Shown here: positions 1 to 48,193 of the stretch, in pieces
Numbering within the stretch: position 1 is the first letter of the stretch
Layout of the letters: the number at the start of each line of letters is the position of its first letter
DNA from: Anaerolineales bacterium
GTDB taxonomy: Bacteria; Chloroflexota; Anaerolineae; Caldilineales; Caldilineaceae
Assembly: GCA_034428255.1 (NCBI GenBank)
Contig: DAOUIC010000080.1
Coordinates: forward strand, 1 to 48,946
Direction of reading: 5' to 3'
Length of the DNA: 48,946 bases
The notes under the pieces: generated by a model
The model's database searches: none
The model's input: only the letters and a program-made list of their open reading frames with translations
What the model was told of the DNA's origin: nothing
Translations under genes and position numbers: made by a program

Positions 1-2255
<2,255 letters not shown>

Positions 2256-2610
2256 GGGGAATCAATTTCCGTAAGTGGGTGGGACGGTGGATTCGCGTGG
2301 GCGCTGGCCCTCGGGTCGGCATGTCCGATCCTATCAGACCCGATTGCCGTCTGTTGTCGCAGACCGACACCCTTCCGGCACTGTTTCAATCCCGTGGATA
2401 CCGGTATCCGATCCCTGTCAACGGGTCGCTTTTCCGAGTGCCATGGCATCCGGTATCGACTGAGTTGATGACATTCGGTACAACGGGCCCATCGCTGCCC
2501 GCAGCTTCCTTGACCAAAATCAACGAAAGTGAAACAGTGCCCACCCTTCCAGCCGGCGGCACCGGGCCTCGATTCCGGGCCGCGGCAAGGTCCGGCCGAT
2601 CGCTGGTGCG

Positions 2611-3720
2611 CTAGATCCCGCCGGTCATCCTGGCCACGGCCTCGAACAACGACAGGCCTGCGGGCGGCCAATGCCAACGGCCCGTGGCATTCAGGACGAT
2701 GCTCCAACAAAAAACGGCGTACAGGCAGACCAGAGGGATGCCCACCGAACGCCGGGCTTGGAATCCGGTCCACCAGACTACGAGGAACGGCAGTGCGCTG
2801 GACAGCAGCATGATCGGATAGTCAAACGCCAGCATGGAGACCGGTGCCGGCATGGGTTTGACCACCGACGTGATGCCGACGATGGCCAGGATATTGAGCA
2901 TGTTGCTGCCCACGAGGTTCCCGACGGCGATTTCGCGTTCCCCTTGGCGGATGGCGATGAGCGTGGTCGCCAGTTCCGGCAGGCTGGTGCCGATGGCGAC
3001 GACGGACAGTCCAATGAACAACTCGCTGATCCCGAACAGGCGTGCCAGGCCACCGGCTCCATTGACCAGTGCGTCGGCGCTGAGCGGCATGCCTACCAGT
3101 GAAAAGCCAAGCACCACCAGAACGGCCGTCAGTCCCCAGCGTCCAAACCGCTGCCAGAAGTCGGAGTCGTCCGCGGACTCGACGGCTTCGGGATGCGCCC
3201 GACCGAAGGCGATGGAGTACGTCATGAAGATCGCCAAACCCACCAACAGAATCGCGCCTTCCCACGGCATCACGGTGCCGTCGATCGAGAACGCGACCAG
3301 CACCACCGAAACCAGAAGCATCGCGGGATACTCCCGGGTCAACAGGCTACGTCGGATGGGGAGCGCTGCAATCAACGAACCCAGTCCGAGAATCAGGCCG
3401 ATGTTGGCGATGTTGCTGCCAACCACATTGCCGATGGCGAGCGTTCCGGAAGTGTTGGGATTGAGATTGTCGAGGATGCTCACCAGCAATTCCGGCAGGC
3501 TGGTGCCCAGAGCCACAATCGTCAGGCCAATCATGATTGGCGACATGCCCAGGCGGGAGGCCAGCTCACTGGCGCTGGAGACCAGGCCGTACCCAGCCAC
3601 AACCAACCCAGCCAGGCCGAGGGCGATTTGCAGGAGCAGAATCGGAAGGGCGGAATCGCTCACAGGGGAACTCGGTTTTGGTACCGGACAGAAGCTGCGG
3701 TCCAGGCAGGCGCAGCCCAT
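2611..3720 (-). CDS. CaCA-family cation/calcium antiporter (YrbG-like)
   Basis: Polytopic membrane protein with the duplicated alpha-repeat signature GTSLPE (ALGTSLPELLVSI and AIGTSLPELATTL). The start is uncertain: ATG 3720, the adjacent TTG 3723, or an internal GTG before SDSALPILLL. It abuts the miaB stop. Confidence 0.85.
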   Translation of the reverse strand: MGCACLDRSFCPVPKPSSPVSDSALPILLLQIALGLAGLVVAGYGLVSSASELASRLGMSPIMIGLTIVALGTSLPELLVSILDNLNPNTSGTLAIGNVVGSNIANIGLILGLGSLIAALPIRRSLLTREYPAMLLVSVVLVAFSIDGTVMPWEGAILLVGLAIFMTYSIAFGRAHPEAVESADDSDFWQRFGRWGLTAVLVVLGFSLVGMPLSADALVNGAGGLARLFGISELFIGLSVVAIGTSLPELATTLIAIRQGEREIAVGNLVGSNMLNILAIVGITSVVKPMPAPVSMLAFDYPIMLLSSALPFLVVWWTGFQARRSVGIPLVCLYAVFCWSIVLNATGRWHWPPAGLSLFEAVARMTGGI

Positions 3721-3723
3721 CAA

Positions 3724-5166
3724 TCAGCAGGCGGACGGGCTGTCCAGAATGGATTCCAGCCGTCCCTGCATGGACCACGGCCCCGCCCAACTGATCCGTG
3801 CGTTCACCATGCACCCCGTCAAGTCCTGATCGTGTTCCACGAATACCAACCGATTCTGGCGGGTGCGCCCGAGCCACCGGCCCTTGTGGCGGCGTTCAAT
3901 CAGCAATTCCACCGAATCGCCGAGCTGGCGGCGGTTCTTGCGCAGGCAGATGTCGCGCATCAGGGAGTCCAGGCAGGCATGCCGCTCGCGCTTCACGGAA
4001 TCGGGAACATCATCCTCCATCCGACGGTCGCTGACCGTGCCCGGCCGGGGACTGTACCGGGCAAGGTGCGCCTTTTCCGGCTGCAGATCGCGCAGCAGGG
4101 CCTCCGTGTCCCGAAACTGACTGTCCGTCTCCCCGCAGAAGCCCACAATGATGTCGGTGTGGATGCTGCAGTCCGGCAGTTTGGCTCGGATGTGTCCAAT
4201 CAGGTCGCGATACTCCTCCTGCGTATAGCCGCGTCGCATGTTGCGCAGGACGTCGTTGTTGCCGGCCTGGGCCGGCACCTCGATTTGCTCGCATACCTTG
4301 GGCAGATCGCGTACGGTGTCCAGGATGCGGTCCGACAGGTAGGTTGGATGGCTGGTCAGGAAGCGGATACGCCACAGGTCGGGAATGTCGTGGATCGCAC
4401 GCAGTAGGTCGGCTAGGTCCGGCACCTTGGAATCCGACAGGCCTCCATGCACCGGAACCTGTCGGCTGTGGCCCAGGGGGCCGCGCAGGTCGTAGCCATA
4501 CCGATCCACGATCTGACCCAACAGTGTTACTTCGCGGGCACCCTGCCGCACCCGGAGTTCCACTTCCCTTCGAATGTCCTCCAAGGACCGGCTGCGTTCG
4601 ACACCGCGCCGGAACGGGATGATGCAGAAGGTGCAGGCATGGCTGCACCCGTACACCACTGGCACGTAGGCGGTCACCCCTTCGTGATGCAGGCTGTCGC
4701 CGCCCGTGCGGCCCGGGATCCTGTGGGTTTCGTCGGTGTCCTGCAGGGTGTGGCGCGCGGAGGTCAGGTCCCTGATCAGCGATTCCGAATCCTGATTGAT
4801 GGTGTCCTGCAGCAGATGGTTGACCAGAGGCAGTGGTTCGCTGGGCGGCATGAACACGTCCACATGGGGAAACCGTTCGATCAGGGCGGGGGACGGGTTG
4901 ACTCCCACCATGCAGCCCATCAGGGCCAGGGTCCGATCCGGCTGTCCCGACTTCCAGCCCTTGAGCGCGCCGAGTTTGCCCGCCGCCTTGTCCTCTGCGC
5001 TTTGGCGAACCACACAGGTATTCAGGACGACTACCTCCGCTTCATTCGGGTCGCGGGTCGCGGTGTAGCCAAGATCGGTGAGCGCGTCCGCCACATGTTG
5101 GGAATCGGCCGTGTTCATCTGGCAGCCGACCGTCCAGATGTGGAATTTCCTGTCCATTGCTGTCAT
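3724..5166 (-). CDS. miaB: Radical-SAM methylthiotransferase, MiaB-like (tRNA ms2i6A synthase)
   Basis: N-terminal UPF0004 block FHIWTVGCQMNTADS, radical-SAM CxxxCxxC motif (YGCSHACTFCIIPFRRG), and a C-terminal TRAM-like segment. I chose ATG 5166 (MTAMDRKFHIW). The track start at 5262 would overlap the upstream SDR gene by 49 nt and add a non-conserved Arg/Pro-rich leader. Confidence 0.85.
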   Translation of the reverse strand: MTAMDRKFHIWTVGCQMNTADSQHVADALTDLGYTATRDPNEAEVVVLNTCVVRQSAEDKAAGKLGALKGWKSGQPDRTLALMGCMVGVNPSPALIERFPHVDVFMPPSEPLPLVNHLLQDTINQDSESLIRDLTSARHTLQDTDETHRIPGRTGGDSLHHEGVTAYVPVVYGCSHACTFCIIPFRRGVERSRSLEDIRREVELRVRQGAREVTLLGQIVDRYGYDLRGPLGHSRQVPVHGGLSDSKVPDLADLLRAIHDIPDLWRIRFLTSHPTYLSDRILDTVRDLPKVCEQIEVPAQAGNNDVLRNMRRGYTQEEYRDLIGHIRAKLPDCSIHTDIIVGFCGETDSQFRDTEALLRDLQPEKAHLARYSPRPGTVSDRRMEDDVPDSVKRERHACLDSLMRDICLRKNRRQLGDSVELLIERRHKGRWLGRTRQNRLVFVEHDQDLTGCMVNARISWAGPWSMQGRLESILDSPSAC

Positions 5167-23790: not shown

Positions 23791-24510
23791 TCATGTTCCC
23801 GTCAACAACCACAGAATCAACCCGCCGACCATGGCCAAGCCACTGGCCCCCAGCAACGGCTTGCGTACGGGCAAGTCCTCTGCAGGTTGGCGGCCGCGCT
23901 TCCATGCAACTCGGGCCAACACCGGATGTGCCATCATTGAACCCCAAAGGAGAAGGGCGGGACCGGCGCGCAGGTTGGCGACTGCCAAGGACAGCGCGGT
24001 ACCCGCTTGCGGTCCGGCAACGTCCGTGCTGAAGACCGCCCATGCCAGGGCGGCCCGGTTGGCTTGCTCAACCATCACGAAGGAACCGGTCAGGCCTCCG
24101 GTCAACAAACTGCCAAGTGTGAGGAGCAGCGAGTTGAGCAGCAGGCTCACCGCCTCGCCATCGGGCCCGAAGCCGAAATTCGGTTCGAGGCCGGCATGGA
24201 ACCGTTGGAGCCAAAGCCCGCGCAGGTCAAAGCCGCCGGGGACCGCGTTGAGGACCGCCACAGGCCCGATCCAGGCCGCAGCCCTGATGGTCATGGCCTG
24301 TACTGCCAGCCACAAGACCGTCACTGCTGCCTGCTGGCCAACCCCGCCGGAAAGAATCGCGGTTGCAGACACAGCGGTCAAGCCAATGACCTGTAGCGAC
24401 ACCATCAGCCAGGGAACCCCCAGCAGTGCGGGCCACAGCGTGGTGAGGCAGGCGAAGAAACCAGCAATCAAGTAAAATGCCGGGTCCGATGCAGGTTTGT
24501 ATCGAGTCAT
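23791..24510 (-). CDS. Polytopic membrane protein, function unknown
   Basis: Only the last 239 codons of track ORF 23791..25599 look protein-like ([37 protein letters not shown]..., several TM helices). The upstream 360 codons are a low-complexity Q/H/R/G/P shadow of the plus-strand genes. Confidence 0.6.
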
Positions 24511-24594
24511 CAAACGAGTTGCAGGGGACGGAGACCGAGGGCTGCCACAGCTCGGCGATCTCCGGTACGGCCGCATACTCCGGACATCTGGATC

Positions 24595-25173
24595 ATGTTT
24601 GAGTTGTTCAGTCCCTTCTTCCTCTGGCGCAACTCGTGGGCGGAAGTTGACGGCATGGTGCCACCCTTGGAACATGTCCTCCTGATGCTGGCTGTCGTGG
24701 TGCTGGTCGAGTTGTTGGTGCGGGGTGCGGAGCAGTTTATGCGGACCCTCACCGGTTGGCGCCTGTTCCGGTTCCAATTGACGGCGGGGGCATTGACCGC
24801 CGCCGCCTATCTGGGGACCAGTGTCGCCGTGTACGCATTGCTGACGCAGGCCTACGGGATCCGCGTCGAGTTTCCCCGGTTTCTGTCCCTGTTCGGCATG
24901 GCAGCCCTGCCCAGGATCCTGATCATCTATCGGCTTCTGCCCTATCTGGGACGAACGTTCGGAGTGCTGCTCAACATCTGGACTGCCGGTTTGCTTTGGC
25001 GCGTGCTCGGTGTCGGGTACGGTCTTGATGCCTGGCAGAACATCTTGACATGTGCCTTGGCATTCGCGGTGTTTTTTCTGGTTCAGCGCCTCATTCCCAA
25101 GGCGGCGGCTTCCGACGCCGGAGATTCCGTAATGCCCGCCGTGGATCCTCGCTTCGCCCATAGCAGTGGATAG
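24595..25173 (+). CDS. Small multi-pass membrane protein (possibly Yip1-like), function unknown
   Basis: 192 aa with about 5 hydrophobic helices and coding-like composition. It is divergent from 23791..24510 and lies 10 nt upstream of the next gene. Confidence 0.6.
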   Translation: MFELFSPFFLWRNSWAEVDGMVPPLEHVLLMLAVVVLVELLVRGAEQFMRTLTGWRLFRFQLTAGALTAAAYLGTSVAVYALLTQAYGIRVEFPRFLSLFGMAALPRILIIYRLLPYLGRTFGVLLNIWTAGLLWRVLGVGYGLDAWQNILTCALAFAVFFLVQRLIPKAAASDAGDSVMPAVDPRFAHSSG

Positions 25174-25182
25174 GGGGATGCC

Positions 25183-26181
25183 ATGCCCGGCATTGCCGAT
25201 GTCCGCTTGGACGCAGCCTTTTGGATTTGGGGGTGCGTGCTGGCGGTGTTCCTGGGATTCGCCATTTACCCAATCCTGACACTGGGACCCTACATACGCG
25301 CCGGCTGCAGGATCAACATCCATCGCAACCGCATCCCACCGGACAATAAGGTTAGGCAGCCCAATCCCGATGGCGACGCCTTCGTGCTGTTCTTGTCCGG
25401 CGTGGGCCGGGTCTCGGCCCTGACCATGAGCCGCCGGGAACAGGGCATCCTGCACCGGCTGGCGGAACTGTGCGGCAGGGCCGTCCTGCTGGACGATGTC
25501 TTCGCGTACTCGATCAACAACCTGCCGCTGGTATCCCACCGCAGTCTCAGTCCGATGTGGCGGTGGGCCCTGCGCCACAAACTGAAGAAACGGCTGCACA
25601 ATTCAGTCCTCGGGTACCTTATCAACCTGCGCAACATCCTGCACATCCTGATTTCCGCCGATAGCCGGTACGCCATGGTATACAACCGTGGCTGTGCCCA
25701 CGTTATCACCGATCATCTGCAACAGTACGGCTACGACCTCAACCAGCCCAAGCCCTTGGTGATCGTCTCCTACAGCGGGGCCGGCCAAATCGCCGCTGGC
25801 GCGGTCCAACATCTGTGGGAAGAGTATCGATTGCCGGTTTACGTTCTCATGCTGGCCTGCTTCTTCACCGCCTCGGGCATTGATCGCGCCAACCACGTCT
25901 GGGAATTCATCGGTACCACGGATCAAGCCTATCGGTTTTGTCTGTTGTTCTCGCCCAGTCGATGGCTGATTCCGCGGCTGTCCCTGTGGCGGCGGTTGAC
26001 GGCTGCCGGGCGGACAACCAGGATCGACATGGGCGCCATGAAACACACCGGGCGCGGCGGCTATCTGGACCGCAACAGCGTCACACCCGAGGGAGTCCCG
26101 TTCATCGATGCCACCGCCCAAGCGATGGCGGATGTGATCAACAGGATCAGGACCGGTCCCGAGTCCCGCAAGGAGGCGTGA
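25183..26181 (+). CDS. Membrane-anchored hypothetical protein, possible alpha/beta-fold
   Basis: N-terminal TM helix (AAFWIWGCVLAVFLGFAIYPILTL). Beta-strand/loop patterns FVLFLSGVG and LVIVSYSGAGQIAAG resemble an oxyanion loop and nucleophile elbow, but this is weak. GGGGGA SD before ATG 25183. Confidence 0.55.
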   Translation: MPGIADVRLDAAFWIWGCVLAVFLGFAIYPILTLGPYIRAGCRINIHRNRIPPDNKVRQPNPDGDAFVLFLSGVGRVSALTMSRREQGILHRLAELCGRAVLLDDVFAYSINNLPLVSHRSLSPMWRWALRHKLKKRLHNSVLGYLINLRNILHILISADSRYAMVYNRGCAHVITDHLQQYGYDLNQPKPLVIVSYSGAGQIAAGAVQHLWEEYRLPVYVLMLACFFTASGIDRANHVWEFIGTTDQAYRFCLLFSPSRWLIPRLSLWRRLTAAGRTTRIDMGAMKHTGRGGYLDRNSVTPEGVPFIDATAQAMADVINRIRTGPESRKEA

Positions 26182-28019: not shown

Positions 28020-29093
28020 ATGGATGAAGCTTCCCGCCTCCAAGTTGCGCGCGACGCGGCCGAACGCATGGGGCACCGGCTCACCATGCTGCTGGACGCA
28101 CTGGACGAGGGGCAGCAGAGCTGCCTGTGCCTCGATTTTGCGGACGAGCAGGAGCGAACTTTCTGGAACTACACACCGATTGCCAGGCAAGGCCTGGCAC
28201 TCAGGGACATGACCCGGCCGCAGCACCAGCTCGTGATGCAATTGCTGCATGATGCGCTCAGTCCAACCGGGTACAACACGGTCCAGTTAATCATGGCCAT
28301 GGAAGCAATCCTGGATGGCAAGGAGGGATTTACCCGGCCCCTTCCGGGGCGTGATCCCCAGAACTACTGCCTGTCCCTTTTTGGACGGCCCGATGCGGTC
28401 GAACCGTGGAGTTGGCGGTTCGAAGGCCATCATGTGTCCCTGCACTTTGCCGTGGCGAACGGGCGCCTGCTCTCCCCGTATCCCTTGTTCCTGGGTTCCA
28501 ACCCCGCCGACAGCGCGCTGCGCGGCGGCGCAAGTCTGCGACCGCTGCATGATCTCGAGGACTGTGCCCGCGCCCTGTTCGAGTCGCTTGACGGATCGCA
28601 GCGCCGGACTGCGTTGCTTTCGGCCTACGCACCGCAGGACATCCTCCTGGGGAGCGTGTCCCGGGTGGCCTATGAAATGCCGCCCTCTTTCGATGCCGAC
28701 GGCTGGATGCGGGCGACCGGGGCAGGCCCTGAGGATGTCGACCGGCTGTTGATCCGACGCCACGGAACTGGCGTCAGCCTTGCCAGCCTTAATCCGGACC
28801 AGGCCTCCAGCCTGCAAGCCTTGGTTGGACATTACCTGAGTTGTTTGGCGGACGACGTGGCCGAAGCGGAACAAGCCCGGATTGGCGATCTCGCGGGCGC
28901 ACCCCTGCACTTTGCCTGGTCCGGCAGCGCGCGTCGCCGGGAACCCCACTACTACCGCATTCAGGCTCCTGGATTTCTCATTGAATTCGACAACTATCAG
29001 AACGACGCCAACCATATCCACTCGGTTTGGCGGGATCCCGCCAACGACTTTGGGCGGGACGCATTGGCCTCCCATTACCGCCACAGCCATTGA
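28020..29093 (+). CDS. DUF3500 domain-containing protein
   Basis: Blocks I recognise from DUF3500 proteins: ERTFWNYTP, WSWRFEGHHVSLHF, LFLGSNPA, FLIEFDNYQNDANHIHSVWRDPANDFGRD. I preferred ATG 28020. The track start TTG 27969 would read through the terminator hairpin. Confidence 0.8.
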   Translation: MDEASRLQVARDAAERMGHRLTMLLDALDEGQQSCLCLDFADEQERTFWNYTPIARQGLALRDMTRPQHQLVMQLLHDALSPTGYNTVQLIMAMEAILDGKEGFTRPLPGRDPQNYCLSLFGRPDAVEPWSWRFEGHHVSLHFAVANGRLLSPYPLFLGSNPADSALRGGASLRPLHDLEDCARALFESLDGSQRRTALLSAYAPQDILLGSVSRVAYEMPPSFDADGWMRATGAGPEDVDRLLIRRHGTGVSLASLNPDQASSLQALVGHYLSCLADDVAEAEQARIGDLAGAPLHFAWSGSARRREPHYYRIQAPGFLIEFDNYQNDANHIHSVWRDPANDFGRDALASHYRHSH

Positions 29094-29194
29094 ATGGTTC
29101 TTCCTTGTGACGGGACCTGGATCCCGGTCCATTTGCTAGAATCCGCGCCCTGAGCCGGGGTCATTCCCGACTGCCGCCGCCAAGGAATCAAGGT

Positions 29195-30883
29195 ATGCCC
29201 CACGAAGCCGGGGTCGTTGAACGCCCGGAAGACTTCATTCGCCAGCGCATCAGGGTCGACCTGGACGGCGGCAACCTCGACGGTCCGGTCACGACCCGGT
29301 TTCCGCCCGAACCCAACGGGTTCCTCCACATCGGGCATGCCAAGTCGATATTCCTGAACAGCGACTTGGCGCGGGAAAACAATGGACGCTTCAACCTGCG
29401 GTTCGACGACACCAACCCACTCACCGAGACCCCTGAATTCGTCGCATCGATGCAGGCGGACATTAGCTGGCTGGGTGTGCAGTGGGACGGCGACGTCAAG
29501 TTTGCGTCCGGTTATTTCGAGCAACTGTATGAGTGGGCGGAGGAACTGGTCCGCCGCGGCCATGCCTACGTCGACGATTTGAGTGCCGACCAGATACGGG
29601 AGATGCGCGGCACACTGACCGAACCGGGTCGCAACAGCCCGTTCCGCGACCGATCGCCGGAGGAAAACCTTAGGTTGCTGCGGGAAATGAAGAACGGCCA
29701 GCATCCCGACGGCAGCAAGGTGTTGAGGGCCCGCATCGACATGGCTTCCCCCAACATCAATCTGCGGGACCCGGTTCTGTATCGCATCGCCCATGCCAGC
29801 CATCACCAGACCGGCGACCAGTGGTGCATTTACCCGATGTACGATTGGGCCCACGGCCAGAGTGATTCCATCGAACGGGTCACGCACTCCATTTGCACCC
29901 TCGAGTTTGCCGACCACAACCCGTTGTATCAGTGGTTTCTGGACCGCTTGGGAGTGTACAAGCCGGTTCAGCTGGAATTCGCCCGGTTGGAACTTACCCA
30001 CACGGTACTGCATAAACGAGTCCTGCGCCGCATCATGGCGAAGGGCCTCCTGGACGGCTGGGACGATCCCCGCCTGGGCACGCTGGCAGGACTGCGGAGA
30101 CGGGGAGTCCCGCCGGCCGCCATTCGCAACCTGTGCCGACAGGTCGGTGTGGCCAGAGCCAACACGATGGTCGAAATCCAGAAGTTCGAGTACTGCATCA
30201 GGGAGGAGCTGAACCGGACGGCATGCCGCCGCATGGGGGTTCTGGACCCTGTGAAGCTGGTGGTTACGACCTATCCGGCAGGGGAAACGGACCTGCTGGA
30301 GGCGGTGAACAACCCCGAAGATCCTTCCCAGGGCACCAGGACAGTGTCCTTCAGCCGGGAGGTGTGGGTCGAGCGTGCGGACTACATGGACGATCCGCCG
30401 CGCCGTTTCCACCGTCTTGCCGTCGGCCGCGAAGTCCGGTTGCGCTATGCCTGGCTGGTGACCTGCACCGGCGTCGTGCGCGACAGCGATGGACGGGTCG
30501 TCGAAATCCACTGTACCCATGATCCCGCTTCGCGCGGCGGCACCGCTCCGGACGGGCGCAAGGTGCGGGGCACCATCCACTGGGTGGACTCGCGCACAGC
30601 CGTTCCAGCGGAAGTGCATCTGTTGGAACACCTGTTTGCGGACCCCAACGCCGGGCAGGCCTCCCCGGACGAGGTGATGGACCATTTCAATCCGGATTCC
30701 CGCCGGATCGTGACGGGTGCCAAGTTGGAACCGGGAGCCCTCGAGGATGCCCGTGCCGACACAATTCAACTGGAGCGCGTTGGATACTTCAAGGCGGACT
30801 CGGCCGCGCCGGACAGGCCCGTACTGTTGCGCACCGTTCCGTTGCGCGACAGCTGGAAGAAGATTCAAAACAAGACCGCCTGA
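29195..30883 (+). CDS. glnS: Glutamine--tRNA ligase
   Basis: DFIRQRI..., TRFPPEPNGFLHIGHAKS (HIGH), FNLRFDDTNP, and a class I core plus a C-terminal beta-barrel anticodon-binding region, characteristic of GlnRS. Confidence 0.95.
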   Translation: MPHEAGVVERPEDFIRQRIRVDLDGGNLDGPVTTRFPPEPNGFLHIGHAKSIFLNSDLARENNGRFNLRFDDTNPLTETPEFVASMQADISWLGVQWDGDVKFASGYFEQLYEWAEELVRRGHAYVDDLSADQIREMRGTLTEPGRNSPFRDRSPEENLRLLREMKNGQHPDGSKVLRARIDMASPNINLRDPVLYRIAHASHHQTGDQWCIYPMYDWAHGQSDSIERVTHSICTLEFADHNPLYQWFLDRLGVYKPVQLEFARLELTHTVLHKRVLRRIMAKGLLDGWDDPRLGTLAGLRRRGVPPAAIRNLCRQVGVARANTMVEIQKFEYCIREELNRTACRRMGVLDPVKLVVTTYPAGETDLLEAVNNPEDPSQGTRTVSFSREVWVERADYMDDPPRRFHRLAVGREVRLRYAWLVTCTGVVRDSDGRVVEIHCTHDPASRGGTAPDGRKVRGTIHWVDSRTAVPAEVHLLEHLFADPNAGQASPDEVMDHFNPDSRRIVTGAKLEPGALEDARADTIQLERVGYFKADSAAPDRPVLLRTVPLRDSWKKIQNKTA

Positions 30884-30957
30884 CCTCCGGCACAGTCGAG
30901 TGTTCGCCCAGTGACCGCGGCCACGCCCATCCCGAACCGGCACGGCAATTCAGTGCC

Positions 30958-40779: not shown

Positions 40780-41445
40780 ATGTCTTTCAAGATTCACGGA
40801 AAGCTGGTCTGTCTGAACGGCCCCGGCAGCGGCCAGGAGGTAGTTCTGGGCGAAGGCACGAGCGTTGTTGGCCGAGCGCCCAACTGCGACATTGTGCTGG
40901 ATGACAAGTTCGCGTCGCGCCAGCATGCCATGATCGATCGCTTGGACGGCCAATACCTGGTGCGCGACATTGGCAGCAAGAATGGCATTTCGGTCAACCA
41001 GTACCGATTGTCCCGGGATGAATCGGTGGTCCTGACGGACGGCGCGGTTGTCACCTTTGCCAATACCCGGTTCCGATTTGAGGATCCGGCAGCGACGATG
41101 ACCAACCTGAGTCTGGAGAAGTCCGAGACCGCGCCGGTACTCCGGCTGCACGAAGCCAGTCGTCATGTGCTCATCAATGGTGTGCCCCTGAATCCTCCGT
41201 TAAGTCTGAAACAGTTCGACCTGCTGTGTCTGCTGCACGACAGGTTGGGCCAAGCGGTGAGCAAACACGAGATTGCCAGCGCCGTGTGGCCGGAGGAAAC
41301 CGATGGCGTGGCCGACAGCAACGTGGATCGCCTGGTCAGCCGGGTCCGTTCGCGGCTGGCGGACGCCACGGGCGGCAACCAGTTCATCGAAACGGTGCGC
41401 GGTTTTGGATTCCGGATGCTTGATCCCGACGGCAACGGGAAGTAG
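40780..41445 (+). CDS. FHA domain fused to an OmpR/PhoB-type winged-helix DNA-binding domain (transcriptional regulator)
   Basis: The N-terminal FHA is GTSVVGRAPNCDIVLDDKFASRQHAMIDRLDGQYLVRDIGSKNGISVNQ. The C-terminal Trans_reg_C pattern is VLINGVPLNPPLSLKQFDLLCLLHDRLGQAVSKHEIASAVWPEE...NVDRLVSRVRSRL...IETVRGFGFRM. There is no receiver domain. GGGAGGGA SD. Confidence 0.85.
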   Translation: MSFKIHGKLVCLNGPGSGQEVVLGEGTSVVGRAPNCDIVLDDKFASRQHAMIDRLDGQYLVRDIGSKNGISVNQYRLSRDESVVLTDGAVVTFANTRFRFEDPAATMTNLSLEKSETAPVLRLHEASRHVLINGVPLNPPLSLKQFDLLCLLHDRLGQAVSKHEIASAVWPEETDGVADSNVDRLVSRVRSRLADATGGNQFIETVRGFGFRMLDPDGNGK

Positions 41446-41485
41446 GTCCGCGGAGCGACTGGATTGCGGGCCCCCCTGTTTCAAC

Positions 41486-42130
41486 ATGCAACCATCCATC
41501 TTGTCGACAACCACCGCAATGACCTTGCCTGTTCTGGTCATGGCGGCGGGTGCTTCCCGCCGCATGGGGTACCCGAAGCAGTTGCTGCCCCTTGGGACCG
41601 GCACTGTCCTGACAACGGTTGTCGACACGCTGTTGGCTGCCGGCTGCACCCCTGTCGTGTGTGTGTTGGGGGCCTCGGGCACCCAAGTGGCGGCTGTGCT
41701 GGCCGGCCTGTGGGTCGAAACCGTGTACAACCCGGACTGGGACACCGGGGAAATGCTCAGTTCCGTTCAATGCGGCCTTCGCCACCTGTCGCGAACGGAT
41801 ACCCACCCCGGGTGCCTGGTCGCCCTCGGCGACCAGCCGGGCTTGACCACAGCCACGGTGCAGGCCCTGATCGGCACTGTGGCCAACAATCCGAATCGGA
41901 CGGTGTTCTGCAGCCACGGCATGCGACGGCAACATCCCATCTACCTGCCAGTGTCACTATGGCCGCGCATCTGCGAACTGCCGGTCTCCAGCACGCTGCG
42001 GGCCGTGACGGGCGATCCGCAACTGCCGGTCGCGTACGTAAATGTGGATTCGTTTAACGACTTCCGTGATCTGGACACGCCGGAACAGTATGATTCCTAC
42101 CGCGCTCAGGCGATGTCAGACACCGGGTGA
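41486..42130 (+). CDS. MobA-like NTP transferase (molybdenum cofactor cytidylyltransferase MocA-like)
   Basis: LVMAAGASRRMGYPKQLLPL...VLGA...GDQP... is typical of MocA/MobA nucleotidyltransferases. Start is either ATG 41486 or ATG 41519. The earlier part of track ORF 41273.. overlaps the FHA regulator. Confidence 0.75.
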   Translation: MQPSILSTTTAMTLPVLVMAAGASRRMGYPKQLLPLGTGTVLTTVVDTLLAAGCTPVVCVLGASGTQVAAVLAGLWVETVYNPDWDTGEMLSSVQCGLRHLSRTDTHPGCLVALGDQPGLTTATVQALIGTVANNPNRTVFCSHGMRRQHPIYLPVSLWPRICELPVSSTLRAVTGDPQLPVAYVNVDSFNDFRDLDTPEQYDSYRAQAMSDTG

Positions 42131-42133
42131 TGC

Positions 42134-42463
42134 ATGACAGGTTCTCTGTATCCGAAGCTCCAGCAGTTGATTGAGGATGGTACCACGGTCGCCATGGCGA
42201 CCATCACGGTGGTGAAAGGATCGGTCCCCAGGGAAGTGGGGGCGAAAATGCTGATTCATCCGGCCGGGCTCCACGTTGGCACGGTCGGAGGAGGGTGCGG
42301 TGAGGCGGACGTGATCCGCGCCGCCCTGGACGTAATCCGGGATGGGGAACCGCGCACCGTGCGCGTGGATTTGACCGAAGACATTTCGATGGACAGTCTT
42401 GGTGTCTGCGGCGGGATCATGGATGTTTTCATTGAACGCTGTGGTTCGGCGGATGCCGGATAA
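42134..42463 (+). CDS. XdhC/CoxI-family N-terminal domain protein (stand-alone)
   Basis: VAMATITVVKGSVPREVGAKMLIHPAGLHVGTVGGGCGEADVIRAALDVIRDGEPRTVRVDL...GVCGGIMDVFIE is an XdhC_CoxI N-domain only (109 aa). Confidence 0.75.
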   Translation: MTGSLYPKLQQLIEDGTTVAMATITVVKGSVPREVGAKMLIHPAGLHVGTVGGGCGEADVIRAALDVIRDGEPRTVRVDLTEDISMDSLGVCGGIMDVFIERCGSADAG

Positions 42464-42714
42464 CGGACCGCTTTCGTGTGGTGGACTAGTTCGGTTCCCG
42501 GCCTTTGGACAGTAGCCGGGCACTGAATGCAAACCCAAGCCGAGCAGCGCGATTTCGAAACCGGGCGCGGTGGGGCGCACAGCCGCGCCTGCCCACCGTG
42601 GTTGAAACCAAACAGGCAGGCAGGCAGCCGGGATCCGGCTGACGTCGCGTGCCGACCCAAATACGATTTCGAGGGCCTTCTCCGTTTCCGTCGGACGCCG
42701 ACGACTTGATTGGC

Positions 42715-43497
42715 ATGGATCTGTCCCTGCTCCAGGCACTGAATAGGGCGTTGCGCGGACGCAAGTCGGTCGCCGTGGTCACGTTGATCCGTGGAGAAGC
42801 CGCACCGGGGGTGACGGTTGGCGCACAGTGCCTTGTCGATCCTGCCAATGGCACCGCGCAGATGGGCCCACTCCGGTTGCCCGGGGCGATTGTAGAGCAG
42901 GTGTTGGAAATTATCTCCGGTCGGGAAAGCAAGGCCCTGCACATCCGGACCAAGGAGTGGGAGTGTGACCTGTTCGTTGAGGTGCATGCCGCACCTGCCC
43001 ACCTGCTTATTGTGGGTGCCGGCCACATAGCCGTGCCGCTGGCCAGCATGGCAAGCCTTTGCGAATTCCAGGTGACCGTGCTGGATGATCGGCCGCAATA
43101 CGCCAACCACGCCCGGTTCCCCGCCGCCGATCAAGTTCGGGCGGCGCCGTTGGTGTCGACCCTCCAATCAATGCGGAACGCCGGGCAGCTTGATCGGCAC
43201 ACGAGTGTCGTGCTGGTCACCAGAGGCCACCAGCATGACGTTGATTGTCTGACCGAATTGATCGGGGACGACCTGGCCTACATCGGCATGATTGGAAGCA
43301 AGCGACGGATACGCGCGGTGTGGGAACTCCTGGAGTTGGAATACAATCTGGATCGTTCCCTGTTCAGCAAGGTACACGCGCCCATCGGACTGGACATCGG
43401 CGGCAGGACCCCGGCCGAGATTGCGGTGGCCATCTTGGCGGAAATCATCATGGTGCACTACCGGGGACCACAGGCCGCGATGAGCATGCGGAGCTGA
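42715..43497 (+). CDS. XdhC family Moco-insertion accessory protein (N-domain plus Rossmann-like C-domain)
   Basis: VAVVTLIRGEAAPGVTVGAQCLV..., then LLIVGAGHIAVPLASMA...VTVLDDRP...VVLVTRGHQHD...YIGMIGSKRR...HAPIGLDIGGRTPAEIAVAILAEII. I preferred ATG 42715. Confidence 0.8.
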   Translation: MDLSLLQALNRALRGRKSVAVVTLIRGEAAPGVTVGAQCLVDPANGTAQMGPLRLPGAIVEQVLEIISGRESKALHIRTKEWECDLFVEVHAAPAHLLIVGAGHIAVPLASMASLCEFQVTVLDDRPQYANHARFPAADQVRAAPLVSTLQSMRNAGQLDRHTSVVLVTRGHQHDVDCLTELIGDDLAYIGMIGSKRRIRAVWELLELEYNLDRSLFSKVHAPIGLDIGGRTPAEIAVAILAEIIMVHYRGPQAAMSMRS

Positions 43498-43744: not shown

Positions 43745-44503
43745 TTATGCGAACGGCATAGGAACCTCTTCGAAATGCCGGTAGGTGTCTTCGCCGCGTA
43801 CCAGGATTGCCTTCCAACTCTTGCCGTGCGAGTTGTCCTCCGTCTGCTTGATCCAGGTTGGAACATATCGCAGCGTAAGGCCACAGCGCCGCCGCGTCGA
43901 GTGGTTCGGCAGGGAGCCGTGAATGAGGGTCCCGTCGTGGAGCGACATCTGGCCGGCCCTCAGCTCCAAGTTCGTTGCGGTGGCGGCCTGGCCCGGCGAC
44001 ACCGAAACCTCCTGGTTGATGCTTAGGAGATTGCCTACCCGTTCAGCCTTCCCGTGTTCCAGCAGACCCAGATCATGGGAACCCGGGATTACCTGCATAC
44101 AGCCGTTTTCAACATCGCTGTCGTCGACCGCGTACCACGCAGTTACCGCCAGCGGCGGTTCAAGGCCCCAGAACGTCACGTCCTGGTGCCATGCAACATA
44201 GGATTCGCCCAACCTGCCTTCACCGTACTTGTTGAAGAAATGCGTGGCCAGCAACAGGATGTCGGGGCCAATCAGGCCTTCGATGCAGTCGAGAATGGTC
44301 TCGTTGGTGGCGAGCCGCCAAATGAACTCTTCCTCGAAGTGATAGTCAATGAGCTCAATCTGGGCCCGTTCACGGCCAACGTGCTGTTCAATCCGGTCGA
44401 ACTCGGTGGCGTACTGCGACGCCTCCTGCGTTTCGATCACGTCGATGGCATTCAGGAAGCCGTCGCGCTTGTATCTGGTGATTTGTTCTTGTGTCAGAGC
44501 CAT
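43745..44503 (-). CDS. Phytanoyl-CoA dioxygenase (PhyH) family Fe(II)/2-oxoglutarate oxygenase
   Basis: YKRDGFLNAIDVI..., WHQDVTFW (HxD facial triad), AWYAVDDS, GSLPNHS...R. Confidence 0.85.
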   Translation of the reverse strand: MALTQEQITRYKRDGFLNAIDVIETQEASQYATEFDRIEQHVGRERAQIELIDYHFEEEFIWRLATNETILDCIEGLIGPDILLLATHFFNKYGEGRLGESYVAWHQDVTFWGLEPPLAVTAWYAVDDSDVENGCMQVIPGSHDLGLLEHGKAERVGNLLSINQEVSVSPGQAATATNLELRAGQMSLHDGTLIHGSLPNHSTRRRCGLTLRYVPTWIKQTEDNSHGKSWKAILVRGEDTYRHFEEVPMPFA

Positions 44504-44638: not shown

Positions 44639-45481
<843 letters not shown>

Positions 45482-45579
45482 CCGTTTCTGGGTGCCGGCC
45501 TTGTCTCCGGACGACGAACTCTGGGGTTGACTGTCATCGGGCTGAAGGTGGTTGCCTTCGCCTTCCTGCTGTTCGTCAA

Positions 45580-46707
45580 CTACGCCCGAGTCATCGTCCG
45601 TTTCACTTTTTTTTCATCGGCGGCCTGTGTGCCTTCGACATCCTCGGTCGCCTGTTCGTCGCTGTCAACCATCTGTTGGGCCTGGGCTTCCGCTTCCTCC
45701 AAATTCTTTTGCAGATGGTCCGGATGCAGTCCGGCTTCCATGAAGGGCTGCTTCTTCATGCGGTGCGGAAGTGCCAATTCGGCGGCGTAGTGGATGTCGC
45801 GAGTGGTGATCTGCCGACGACCCTCAAAGGCTGCCTGTGCACACGCCGTCTTGAGGATAACGATGTCGGCCCGGTGTCCGTCCACGCCGAAGTTGGTGGT
45901 CAGAGCAGCGATGGTGAACAAGTCCCGGTCGGTGTACTCCACTTCGTGATAGCACCGGCGAGCCGCGATGACCTGTTTGCCAAGCGCCGTCTCCCTTTCC
46001 TTCCACTCGCACACAAAACCGTCCGGGTTCAGGTCGTACTCCAGCCGGCGCTGGAGTATGGCGACTCGTTCCTCGGCATCCTCGATGCCGGTCACATCCA
46101 CGGCATGGGCAAACCGATCCAACAATTGGGGCCGCAGGTCGCCCTCCTCAGGGTTCATGGAACCAATCAGGACGAAACGCGAGGGGTGCTGCACGCTGAT
46201 GCCTTCGCGCTCCACCGTGTTCACCCCCATGGCCGCGGAATCCAGCAGCAGATCAACCACGTGGTCATCCAGCAGATTCACTTCATCGACATACAGGATC
46301 CCCCGGTTGGCGGCGGCCAGCACTCCCGGTTCGAAATGCTTTTGGCCTTCCTGGATGGCCTTCTCGATGTCCAGGGTGCCCACCACGCGATCTTCGGTTG
46401 CACTCACCGGCAGATCCACAAAGGCGGTGGTTTTTTCAACCGTGGGCGCTGACGCCACGTTCGTCAGTTCACGGCACTGGAAGCAAAATTGTTCGGGCCG
46501 CTCCGGATTGCAACTGAAGGGACAGTCGGCCACGGCCGTGATGGGAGGCAGCAACGCGGCTAGGCCACGCGCGGCCGTGGATTTGGCCGTGCCGCGTTCG
46601 CCCCGGATTAGGACACCGCCAATCTGCGGATTGATGGCGTTCAGAATCAGGGCCCGTTTCATGCGGTTCTGACCGACAATGGCCGTTAAGGGATAGGTGG
46701 TGTGCAT
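45580..46707 (-). CDS. ChlI/BchI-MoxR clade AAA+ ATPase (magnesium-chelatase subunit I-like) with an acidic C-terminal tail
   Basis: YPLTAIVGQNRMKRALILNAINPQIGGVLIRGERGTAKST (Walker A), ILYVDEVNLLDDHVVD (Walker B), LIGSMNPEEGDLRPQLLDRF (sensor/arginine finger region). The tail is LEEAEAQAQQMVDSDEQATEDVEGTQAADEKK. Confidence 0.88.
   Translation of the reverse strand: MHTTYPLTAIVGQNRMKRALILNAINPQIGGVLIRGERGTAKSTAARGLAALLPPITAVADCPFSCNPERPEQFCFQCRELTNVASAPTVEKTTAFVDLPVSATEDRVVGTLDIEKAIQEGQKHFEPGVLAAANRGILYVDEVNLLDDHVVDLLLDSAAMGVNTVEREGISVQHPSRFVLIGSMNPEEGDLRPQLLDRFAHAVDVTGIEDAEERVAILQRRLEYDLNPDGFVCEWKERETALGKQVIAARRCYHEVEYTDRDLFTIAALTTNFGVDGHRADIVILKTACAQAAFEGRRQITTRDIHYAAELALPHRMKKQPFMEAGLHPDHLQKNLEEAEAQAQQMVDSDEQATEDVEGTQAADEKKVKRTMTRA
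45607..45614 (-). other. A8 homopolymer (A_AAA_AAA in the zero frame): candidate -1 slippage site or homopolymer indel
   Basis: Plus-strand T8. The minus strand reads GAT GAA AAA AAA GTG. The -1 frame is closed by TGA immediately 5' of the run and stays open from the run into the VWA ORF. Confidence 0.5.
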
Positions 46708-46906: not shown

Positions 46907-47551
46907 ATGTTCGCCGATGAACAAACCTCAAGACTCCAGGCACGTTGGCTGGCCGCTGCCCGGATTGGCAACGGAGATGCCTACGGCGCTCTGTTCATGG
47001 CCTACCACGCAGCCCTGGTGCGATACGCATGGCCGCTGGTGGGAAGCCGGGAAGATGCCGAGGATGCCGTGCATGACGCCTTTTTGAAATCCTGGCAGCG
47101 ACTGGACCGGTTCGACGAACGGCGCGGAACCTATGGAACGTGGATTTTCGCTGTCACGCGCAATTGTTGTCTTGACCGCCTCAGGGCCCGGAAGCGCCGT
47201 CCGACCTCCCCAACCCCGGATCCCGATGCACAGGCCGATTGGCTTGCCGACGATGCTCCGAACCCTGAACATCAGGCCATGCAGCAGGATCGGCAGTCGG
47301 CCATGATGGCCAGGCTTGCCATGCTGCCGCCAGCTTATCGGGAGACGTTGGTCCTGTTCTACTGGAACGACCTGAGCGTGCACGAAATCGCGCAGGTCAC
47401 CGGAACCTCCGAGTCGAACGTCAAGTCCAGGCTCAGCCGGGGACGCAGTCGCCTGGCAGACATTCTGCGTCGGGAAATAGGCGTGCGCCACGACCGCCAG
47501 CCGTCGTTGGACGCATTGGACCTGCTGTTGGCCGGATCCGGCCAAGTGTGA
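46907..47551 (+). CDS. ECF-subfamily RNA polymerase sigma-70 factor
   Basis: Region 2: DAEDAVHDAFLKSWQRLDRFDERRGTYGTWIFAVTRNCCLDRLR. Region 4: LPPAYRETLVLFYWNDLSVHEIAQVTGTSESNVKSRLSRGRSRL. Confidence 0.9.
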   Translation: MFADEQTSRLQARWLAAARIGNGDAYGALFMAYHAALVRYAWPLVGSREDAEDAVHDAFLKSWQRLDRFDERRGTYGTWIFAVTRNCCLDRLRARKRRPTSPTPDPDAQADWLADDAPNPEHQAMQQDRQSAMMARLAMLPPAYRETLVLFYWNDLSVHEIAQVTGTSESNVKSRLSRGRSRLADILRREIGVRHDRQPSLDALDLLLAGSGQV

Positions 47552-47590: not shown

Positions 47591-48193
47591 ATGGAAGTAC
47601 GAATCGTCCATCCGCGGTTTGAGGAGCTGCTGGCCTCCCAGTTGGCAGGTCGTTTGACGAGCGAGGACGCAGCCCGGCTGCAAGAGCACTTGGCAAACTG
47701 CAAAACGTGCCGGGCCCGGCATGCCGAGTTGAGGGCGGTATCTTCGGCCATGGATCGGCTGGAGATGCCAGGCCCCTCGAAACGGCTGGAGGCAAGGCTG
47801 CGCTCCAGCGTTGCGGCTCTGGATCCGGTGCCTGAACGGTTCCGGCCTTTCAAGCTGGCAATTTTGTTGACGGTTCTGGTCATTCCGCCCTTGTTTGCCT
47901 ATGCGCGCCTGCTGCTGGGCCTGGTCGGGTTGCCCGGTATCACTGCATTGGGCACAATTGAAGCTCTGGGATCATGGCTGTCGTATGCATCGCTATGGCC
48001 GCTGTTGTACTGGGTGGGGGCCAATGCGGTGGCTCCGGTCACCACGCAGCTTGCAGAGGCGAATTCCATACTGCAGTTGGTGATGCCTCCCTGGGTTGCC
48101 GCCTTCGCCTGGCTGCTGACGGCCGCGGCCGGTATGGGCGTTGTCTGCCTGCGCAATCTTATTGGAAGGACCCCGGTACCATCGCACGCCTGA
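47591..48193 (+). CDS. Anti-sigma factor (zf-HC2 type) with C-terminal transmembrane region
   Basis: N-terminal HLANCKTCRARHAEL (H-x3-C-x2-C zinc-binding anti-sigma motif) followed by several hydrophobic helices. It lies immediately downstream of the ECF sigma gene. Confidence 0.75.
   Translation: MEVRIVHPRFEELLASQLAGRLTSEDAARLQEHLANCKTCRARHAELRAVSSAMDRLEMPGPSKRLEARLRSSVAALDPVPERFRPFKLAILLTVLVIPPLFAYARLLLGLVGLPGITALGTIEALGSWLSYASLWPLLYWVGANAVAPVTTQLAEANSILQLVMPPWVAAFAWLLTAAAGMGVVCLRNLIGRTPVPSHA

Follow-up and report, generated by a model that had tools for sequence, protein, structure and literature searches.

The window analysed here is a stretch of 48,946 nucleotides from an Anaerolineales bacterium (contig DAOUIC010000080.1 of assembly GCA_034428255.1). 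On its minus strand, an open reading frame (ORF) for a ChlI-type AAA+ ATPase runs into the coding sequence of a VWA domain in a different frame, and a run of eight A nucleotides (A8) is located where the two frames meet. The question raised by this locus is whether the two halves are separate genes, a single gene interrupted by an error in the assembly, or a single gene that is read in two ways. The evidence described below indicates that it is very probably one gene with two protein products, made by programmed −1 recoding at the A-run, and that it belongs to the published chlD/magnesium chelatase frameshift family.

The zero-frame ORF covers positions 46707-45580 (minus strand) and encodes the short product, an ATPase of 375 residues (~41 kDa) with the Pfam domains Mg_chelatase, AAA_lid_2 and AAA_5. 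Its C-terminal end is ...DEKKVKRTMTRA*. The junction region, read on the minus strand, is ...GCC GAT GAA AAA AAA GTG AAA CGG ACG ATG ACT CGG GCG TAG. The A8 run, the slippery site, is located at 45614-45607 within the zero-frame codons GAA AAA AAA, and contains the in-phase heptamer A_AAA_AAA (45613-45607). Beyond the run, the zero frame contributes the tail VKRTMTRA and a stop codon (45580-45606, with the TAG at 45582-45580), which ends the short product 9 codons past the run. The +1 frame is closed right after the run (KKK*).

The −1 frame is closed by a TGA (45616-45614, minus strand) just upstream of the linker, and is then open for 324 codons plus a stop (45613-44639). The first 44 of these codons (45482-45613) encode an acidic, Ser/Gln-rich linker, KKSETDDDSGVVDEQQEGEGNHLQPDDSQPQSSSSGDKAGTQKR, composed largely of Asp, Glu, Gln and Ser, which leads directly into the segment VEVGEQFD... 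of the VWA part. There is no ATG, GTG or TTG codon across the entire linker. The VWA domain itself, with its metal ion-dependent adhesion site (MIDAS), is located at 44732-45187 (residues 143-294 of the 324-residue translation; Pfam VWA and VWA_2). A comparison of tblastn frames places the VWA part on the same strand as the ATPase ORF, at a −1 offset. The Walker A (GERGTAKST), Walker B (LYVDEVNLL) and MIDAS (DxSxS; DASWS) motifs are all intact, and are invariant in an alignment of relatives. A product joined by a −1 shift would consist of residues 1-365 of the short ORF followed by the 324 codons, to give a ChlD-like protein of 689 residues (~75 kDa). The initial annotation of this DNA had described the A8 run, the TGA, the 44-codon open linker and the VKRTMTRA tail, and each of these elements is present where it had been placed.

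The joined protein has the properties of a complete family member. Thousands of continuous proteins of 670-700 residues can be aligned with it from one end to the other, and the best of them, from Caldilineae, Anaerolineae and Ardenticatenaceae, have 57-67% identity at 99-100% coverage and carry the names 'putative cobaltochelatase' or 'magnesium chelatase subunit D'. With the NCBIfam model TIGR02442 (putative cobaltochelatase), the joined product scores 783.8 bits, above the cut-off of 779.45, and covers positions 1-640 of the 641 in the model. The two halves score 503.6 bits (ATPase ORF) and 277.4 bits, both below this cut-off, and neither of them passes any curated cut-off. The short ORF taken alone does not reach the BchI/ChlI model TIGR02030 (434.1 versus a cut-off of 466.95), and the BchD/ChlD model TIGR02031 is not passed either (456.3 versus 499.55). 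By sequence, the family assignment is unambiguous. The match to TIGR02442 also bears out the domain order proposed in the initial annotation, that of BchD/ChlD but with the ATPase module intact. In all the relatives, the conserved segment FDATLRAAAPxQ, which separates the linker from the VWA domain, falls within PF26791 ('AAPxQ'), a recent addition to Pfam; this family is absent from the scan of the window protein, which presumably used an older copy of Pfam.

The fused relatives carry a trace of the run as well. In an alignment of 21 of them, the KK dipeptide at the position of the run is invariant, and the linker is otherwise hypervariable. An automated test of the linker found KK or KKK at the run in 103 of 120 fused relatives, and two of the 17 that it missed (P0045 and P0049) also show KK. 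At the DNA level, the in-frame fused relatives that were read have runs of A7-A10. An invariant KK in a hypervariable linker, together with runs of this length in genes that are already in frame, argues that the run is selected at the nucleotide level, in both registers. In fused in-frame relatives with A8-A10, a stop in the −1 frame is found 0-7 codons past the run, immediately after it (KKK*) in L007, L081 and L083 and after 2-7 codons in L001, L004, L006 and L013. A dnaX-like short product was considered from these stops but is not relied on here, as GA-rich acidic linkers give many TGA codons in the −1 frame anyway.

The split arrangement is not confined to the window. The short ORF was searched against a collection of 5.8 billion proteins, and the best 120 matches, with 66-95% identity, were taken. 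All 120 are 366-376 residues long. Their sources are NCBI, JGI, ENA and Logan records, with contigs of up to ~5 Mb, and include the isolate Litorilinea aerophila. In 119 of the 120, the ending consists of E, Q, S or P (residues with a codon that can end in A), then KK, and then V or A. The stop follows directly after KK[VA] or eight codons on (that is, 1 or 9 codons later), which gives the two tail patterns ...KK[VA] and ...KK[VA]xRAMTxx.

At the DNA level, 13 other independently assembled sequences keep both an A-rich slippery site where the frames meet and the −1 arrangement. The run is A8 in L015, L042, L069, L070, L082, L084, L086, L087 and L088, and A9 in L049 and L055; in each of these it falls exactly at the junction, and the VWA part follows in the −1 frame. 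The closest of these are L084, which is 94% identical to the window gene in nucleotide sequence and is the one true relative returned by a metagenome scan with a single protein, and L088, which is syntenic and has 95% amino acid identity. The Litorilinea aerophila protein is encoded in L086 (the isolate's assembly, GCA_006569185.2) and L087. A variant lineage from three JGI samples (L089, L090 and L091) has CCA AAA AAC instead, a run of A6 followed by C, ~1085-1130 nucleotides into the gene. The −1 arrangement is kept here too, with a TGA just before the site and an in-phase A_AAA_AAC heptamer.

These sequences bear directly on the first of the two readings offered in the initial annotation, that the assembly lacks one base and that the true run is A9, in a single fused gene of 689 residues with no recoding. 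Continuous fused homologues are indeed common in other Chloroflexota, and one related species, L081, has an in-frame A9 (see below), but the short form is found with the same kind of ending in all 120 of the closest homologues, from many projects and databases. Some of the related contigs are long-read-like by name, so that homopolymer miscalls are possible in them, and the '2x' contig of L082 has other apparent frame errors; several of the −1 loci, however, are on contigs with short-read assembler names (k-mer or NODE), and A8 is present in L084, in L088 and in two Litorilinea assemblies. The position of the zero-frame stop is itself conserved. An arrangement that is clade-wide and conserved in both position and stop codon excludes a one-off homopolymer miscall as its cause. 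With 120 of 120 short homologues split and 13 relatives in the −1 arrangement at the DNA level, the single-base error is extremely improbable and the first reading is effectively refuted. The comparative evidence agrees throughout with the second, genuine recoding that yields the ATPase alone as a short product and ATPase, linker and VWA domain together as a long one.

The call of a 717-residue 'fused' protein at L082 (ENA ctg138743_2x_l, gene 2248-4401, P0002) is artefactual and comes from the low coverage of the contig. Before the run is reached, the ORF has already slipped into the −1 frame, and it diverges once more at the C-terminus; at the run, the contig itself has A8 with the −1 arrangement.

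The linker is translated, to judge from its pattern of conservation. The initial annotation had pointed to orthologous loci as the place to look, and both the A-rich site and the open −1 linker are conserved there, the linker being open in every locus compared. Among relatives of 68-79% identity it is conserved as protein (KKS..GDDSE..GEGG..PD..PQQSSSPGD.KG). On the upstream side of the run, variability is highest at third positions of the zero frame (0.452 versus 0.264 and 0.215), and on the downstream side at third positions of the −1 frame (0.336 versus 0.185 and 0.212). At the level of the aligned sequences, this periodicity demonstrates coding constraint in both frames.

The same data can be set against a more conventional interpretation, two ordinary separate genes with the VWA protein initiated at a start of its own, for example the GTG at 45481, and no fusion. 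This is how gene callers annotate the pair, and AAA+ ATPases that stand alone often have a VWA protein as their neighbour (MoxR-VWA, BchI with BchD). The VWA starts that are called, however, differ from one locus to the next, with products of 262, 272, 278, 280 and 314 residues, and the run leads into the −1 frame in every relative. Neither a stop nor a start codon occurs in the 44 codons that separate the run from the first candidate start, and they are conserved as protein with −1 periodicity. Because the linker of the window begins right after a stop and has no start codon over its length, initiation of the VWA protein at a site of its own cannot account for the conservation of the linker. 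In addition, no promoter-like or terminator-like site is found between the two ORFs (the two terminator-like matches in the scanned region fall elsewhere), and only the joined product reaches the cut-off of TIGR02442. Two independent genes are therefore a very unlikely explanation of the locus.

The A8 run would not attract attention by itself. It is the only A/T run of at least 8 in the window, where 0.4 are expected, and at least one such run occurs in 30 of 100 shuffled sequences, so that the run alone is within chance expectation. For this reason the case rests on position and conservation. The placement of the run exactly at the frame junction, together with its conservation in relatives, is far beyond chance.

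What we infer about the proportion of the two products, their assembly and the step of the shift can be put as follows. Standard decoding of GAA AAA AAA GTG would produce the ChlI-like motor ATPase of 375 residues, which terminates at the zero-frame stop. Most ribosomes would stay in this frame, and a minority would move back by one base on A_AAA_AAA. Translation after the shift would read ...EKK-SETDDD..., continue through the acidic linker and enter the VWA/MIDAS domain, and the 689-residue product would be a ChlD-like adaptor that has its first 365 residues in common with the short protein. The two products may form a complex of a motor ring and an adaptor, in analogy to BchI/BchD and to the CobS ring with its CobT adaptor (bioRxiv 10.64898/2026.07.21.739949). 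The frequency of slippage would then set the ratio of motor to adaptor.

Several points weigh against recoding at this site. We infer from conservation that the long product is made. In L081 (JGI Ga0499340_255547, gene 251-2311), which is 87% identical in nucleotide sequence to L070 over the gene, the run is A9 and the whole protein of 686 residues is in frame, with the −1 frame stopping at once (KKK*); the register of the run is therefore not absolutely fixed among relatives. Stimulatory signals are not apparent on either side of the run. On the downstream side, no stem-loop or pseudoknot-like stem at frameshift spacing is shared among the loci (80 nucleotides were folded in 8 loci, and 9 loci were analysed with RNAalifold). 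RNAalifold gives −2.1 kcal/mol for this region, without covariation, and the z-scores of single-sequence folds are between −0.6 and −2.2, with −4.1 for Litorilinea, which is mostly no better than shuffled sequences. On the upstream side, a hairpin as in stem-loop-stimulated transcriptional slippage was looked for, and 0 pairs are predicted. A search of positions 45300-45800 against Rfam gives no match at E ≤ 1. GA-rich stretches resembling GGAGG or GAAGG are located ~19-30 nucleotides upstream of the heptamer, a spacing longer than the ~10 nucleotides at which the Shine-Dalgarno (SD)-like element of dnaX works. They coincide with Glu and Gly codons, and are not counted as an upstream stimulator. 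Finally, a Pfam scan of the large ORFs and tblastn searches with two CobN proteins detect no CobN or ChlH in the 49-kb window, as the initial annotation had noted for chlH/bchH and cobN, and no partner is identified there.

Do the changes in the length of the run instead reflect a locus that is switched at the DNA level, or a gene in decay? Homopolymers are mutable, and A8, A9 and A6C variants are all found among the relatives. The A8 state with the −1 arrangement nevertheless dominates the clade across 66-95% identity, unlike what would be seen for a rapidly switching locus, and both halves are under purifying selection, which argues against decay. The protein is moreover cytoplasmic and does not have a typical phase-variable surface function. 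Phase variation or a pseudogene is hardly a credible account of these data.

A more serious alternative concerns the step at which the frame is changed. RNA polymerase alone could be responsible, if slippage on the A8/T8 run added one A to some of the mRNAs; the A9 transcripts would encode the fusion, and the ribosome would stay in frame throughout. The lack of a conserved RNA structure on either side of the run is consistent with this mechanism. So is the toggling of the register between related species, with A8 in L070 and L082 and an in-frame A9 in L081, as are the A7-A10 runs of the fused relatives, since transcripts of mixed length would supply both products whatever the register of the DNA. 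On the other hand, among the runs on which bacterial RNA polymerase slips efficiently, A8 is one of the shortest. In the variant lineage (CCA AAA AAC, three samples), where the run of A6 is too short for efficient polymerase slippage, the −1 arrangement is kept and the heptamer is a canonical ribosomal one. The retention of the −1 arrangement with an in-phase A_AAA_AAC therefore favours a ribosomal mechanism in that lineage. An in-phase X_XXY_YYZ heptamer is present in every locus, though this is automatic for runs of at least 8. Two published findings speak for the polymerase: in E. coli, the frameshift efficiency of other members of the family rises with the length of the run, from 10% for A7 (A_AAA_AAA) to 40% for A9 and 63% for A11 (PMC3711429), and the A9 run of Thermus dnaX is cited in a passage of the same paper as working by transcriptional slippage.

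Slippage by the polymerase as the sole cause is thus possible, though the less probable account. Ribosomal −1 frameshifting is placed slightly ahead, with transcriptional slippage perhaps contributing. The protein is the same in both cases, and the two mechanisms cannot be told apart from the sequence.

How does the locus compare with known systems? The closest is a cluster of 23 'magnesium chelatase' genes with −1 frameshifts from six genera, including the Chloroflexi genus Herpetosiphon, described by Antonov et al. (2013, NAR; PMC3711429). Its members are annotated as two adjacent genes of ~1 kb and have fused homologues in other species, and the heptamers of the family are A_AAA_AAA, A_AAA_AAG and A_AAA_AAC (PMC3711429). 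Kuznetsov et al. (2022) described frameshifted chlD genes in Chloroflexi (Brevefilum and several Anaerolineae) that lack the large subunit as well as the B12 or chlorophyll pathway (PMC9227772). In the same work, a downstream RNA structure is usual but not obligatory in the chlD frameshift signals, and the substrate of the complex in the 'stage 1' species is stated to be unknown (PMC9227772). As in this family, the window gene has a ChlI-like ORF followed by a VWA part in the −1 frame, an in-phase poly-A slippery site at the junction, annotation of the pair as adjacent genes of ~1 kb, and fused in-frame homologues in other Chloroflexi. Unlike the published members, in which it is usual, the clade of the window has no conserved downstream structure. 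The window gene thus shows every sequence-level feature of the chlD frameshift family except this 'usual' RNA structure. A study by Antonov from 2020 in Mol Biol Evol reportedly also deals with the family. The Caldilineae-type clade is not named in PMC3711429 or PMC9227772, in which Herpetosiphon and several Anaerolineae are. The finding is genuine, and recoding at this locus is well supported by the comparative evidence; the gene is a new, well-conserved member of a family already published and introduces no new principle.

The analogy with tau and gamma of dnaX, drawn in the initial annotation, is apt. In both cases one gene with an A-rich slippery site gives two AAA+ proteins that have the same ATPase module at the N-terminus, and both registers occur in nature, the long form being in frame in some lineages and dependent on the shift in others. 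There are also differences. In dnaX of E. coli (A_AAA_AAG, ribosomal) the shift yields the short form, whereas in the window gene it would yield the long form, as in the two-ORF dnaX of Chlorobi. The site in the E. coli gene is flanked by an SD-like element on the upstream side and a hairpin on the downstream side, neither of which is evident here, and the protein family and the function are different.

Among the chelatases, the putative cobaltochelatase of TIGR02442, a fused subunit that partners CobN, is matched end to end, with an intact ATPase module and the VWA domain after it. In comparison, the window protein is encoded in two frames, and CobN is found neither in the 49-kb window nor in any locus of the −1 clade. 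The pairs BchI/ChlI and BchD/ChlD likewise consist of an AAA+ motor and an adaptor with an AAA+-like N-terminus, an acidic linker and a VWA/MIDAS domain. The scores of the window proteins are below the equivalog cut-offs for these subunits, however, and no BchH/ChlH or photosynthesis genes are seen. Moreover, true BchD is a separate gene product, and its ATPase module is degenerate.

For annotation, the consequence is that a locus which, in this large Chloroflexota clade, is routinely split into two unrelated genes ('ATP-binding protein' and 'VWA domain protein'), 120-170 nucleotides apart for no evident reason, should be read as one recoded chlD-type gene with two products. For biology, a well-sampled and tightly conserved clade is added to the chlD recoding family. 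This clade includes the culturable Litorilinea aerophila, a tractable organism in which to study the mechanism of the shift, the ratio of the products, and the role of ChlI/ChlD without a linked large subunit. The remaining interest of the locus lies in the step of the shift and in what such a pair does.

CobN directly adjoins the homologue in 35 of 80 more distant genome loci, among them those of Streptomyces, Dehalococcoidia and several archaea, and in 0 of 15 sequences of the −1 clade. A gene for an extracytoplasmic function (ECF) sigma factor is located divergently upstream of the chelatase gene instead (46907-47551, plus strand). It is present, with 36-94% amino acid identity, in every locus of the −1 clade that extends far enough (the window, L015, L042, L069, L070, L082, L084, L086/L087, L088 and L090), and the pairing of the chelatase gene with the ECF gene is a conserved synteny. 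Beside the ECF gene, an anti-sigma factor is detected as Pfam zf-HC2 in L082 (weakly) and in L088, and tblastn matches are confined to the two nearest relatives, L084 and L088. A candidate anti-sigma ORF of 200 residues is located at 47591-48193 (plus strand) in the window, assigned by its position and its tblastn match to L084 and L088.

Since no CobN or ChlH is nearby in 15 related sequences and the ECF pairing is constant, the complex could act on a different client. The ChlI/ChlD pair of the Caldilineae-type clade might serve a non-tetrapyrrole client, as a machine for metal insertion or remodelling similar to MoxR-VWA, in which slippage would set the ratio of motor to adaptor. This proposal is speculative and on present evidence rather doubtful.

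As for the other large ORFs of the window, the only one of more than 1000 residues, which was considered as a candidate for CobN, has 1197 residues and is SMC. The others that were scanned belong to unrelated Pfam families or have no match (3 of 10). The three long ORFs without a Pfam match at E ≤ 0.001 are located at 84-2468 (plus strand, 794 residues), 23791-25599 (minus strand, 602 residues) and 29075-30943 (minus strand, 622 residues); some of them overlap long ORFs on the opposite strand, and it is possible that not every one is a gene.

Downstream of the chelatase gene, at 41273-43497 (plus strand) and 43745-44503 (minus strand), are genes for a PhyH-family dioxygenase, an XdhC-type accessory protein in two ORFs, and a MobA-like nucleotidyltransferase. 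They look like a set for the maturation of the molybdenum cofactor, with no evident link to the chelatase. The XdhC ORF at 42649-43497 contains XdhC_C. The one at 42134-42463 is assigned through its syntenic counterpart in L088, in which Pfam XdhC_CoxI is seen. The whole set is present in L088 with the same split of XdhC, and L084 also matches.

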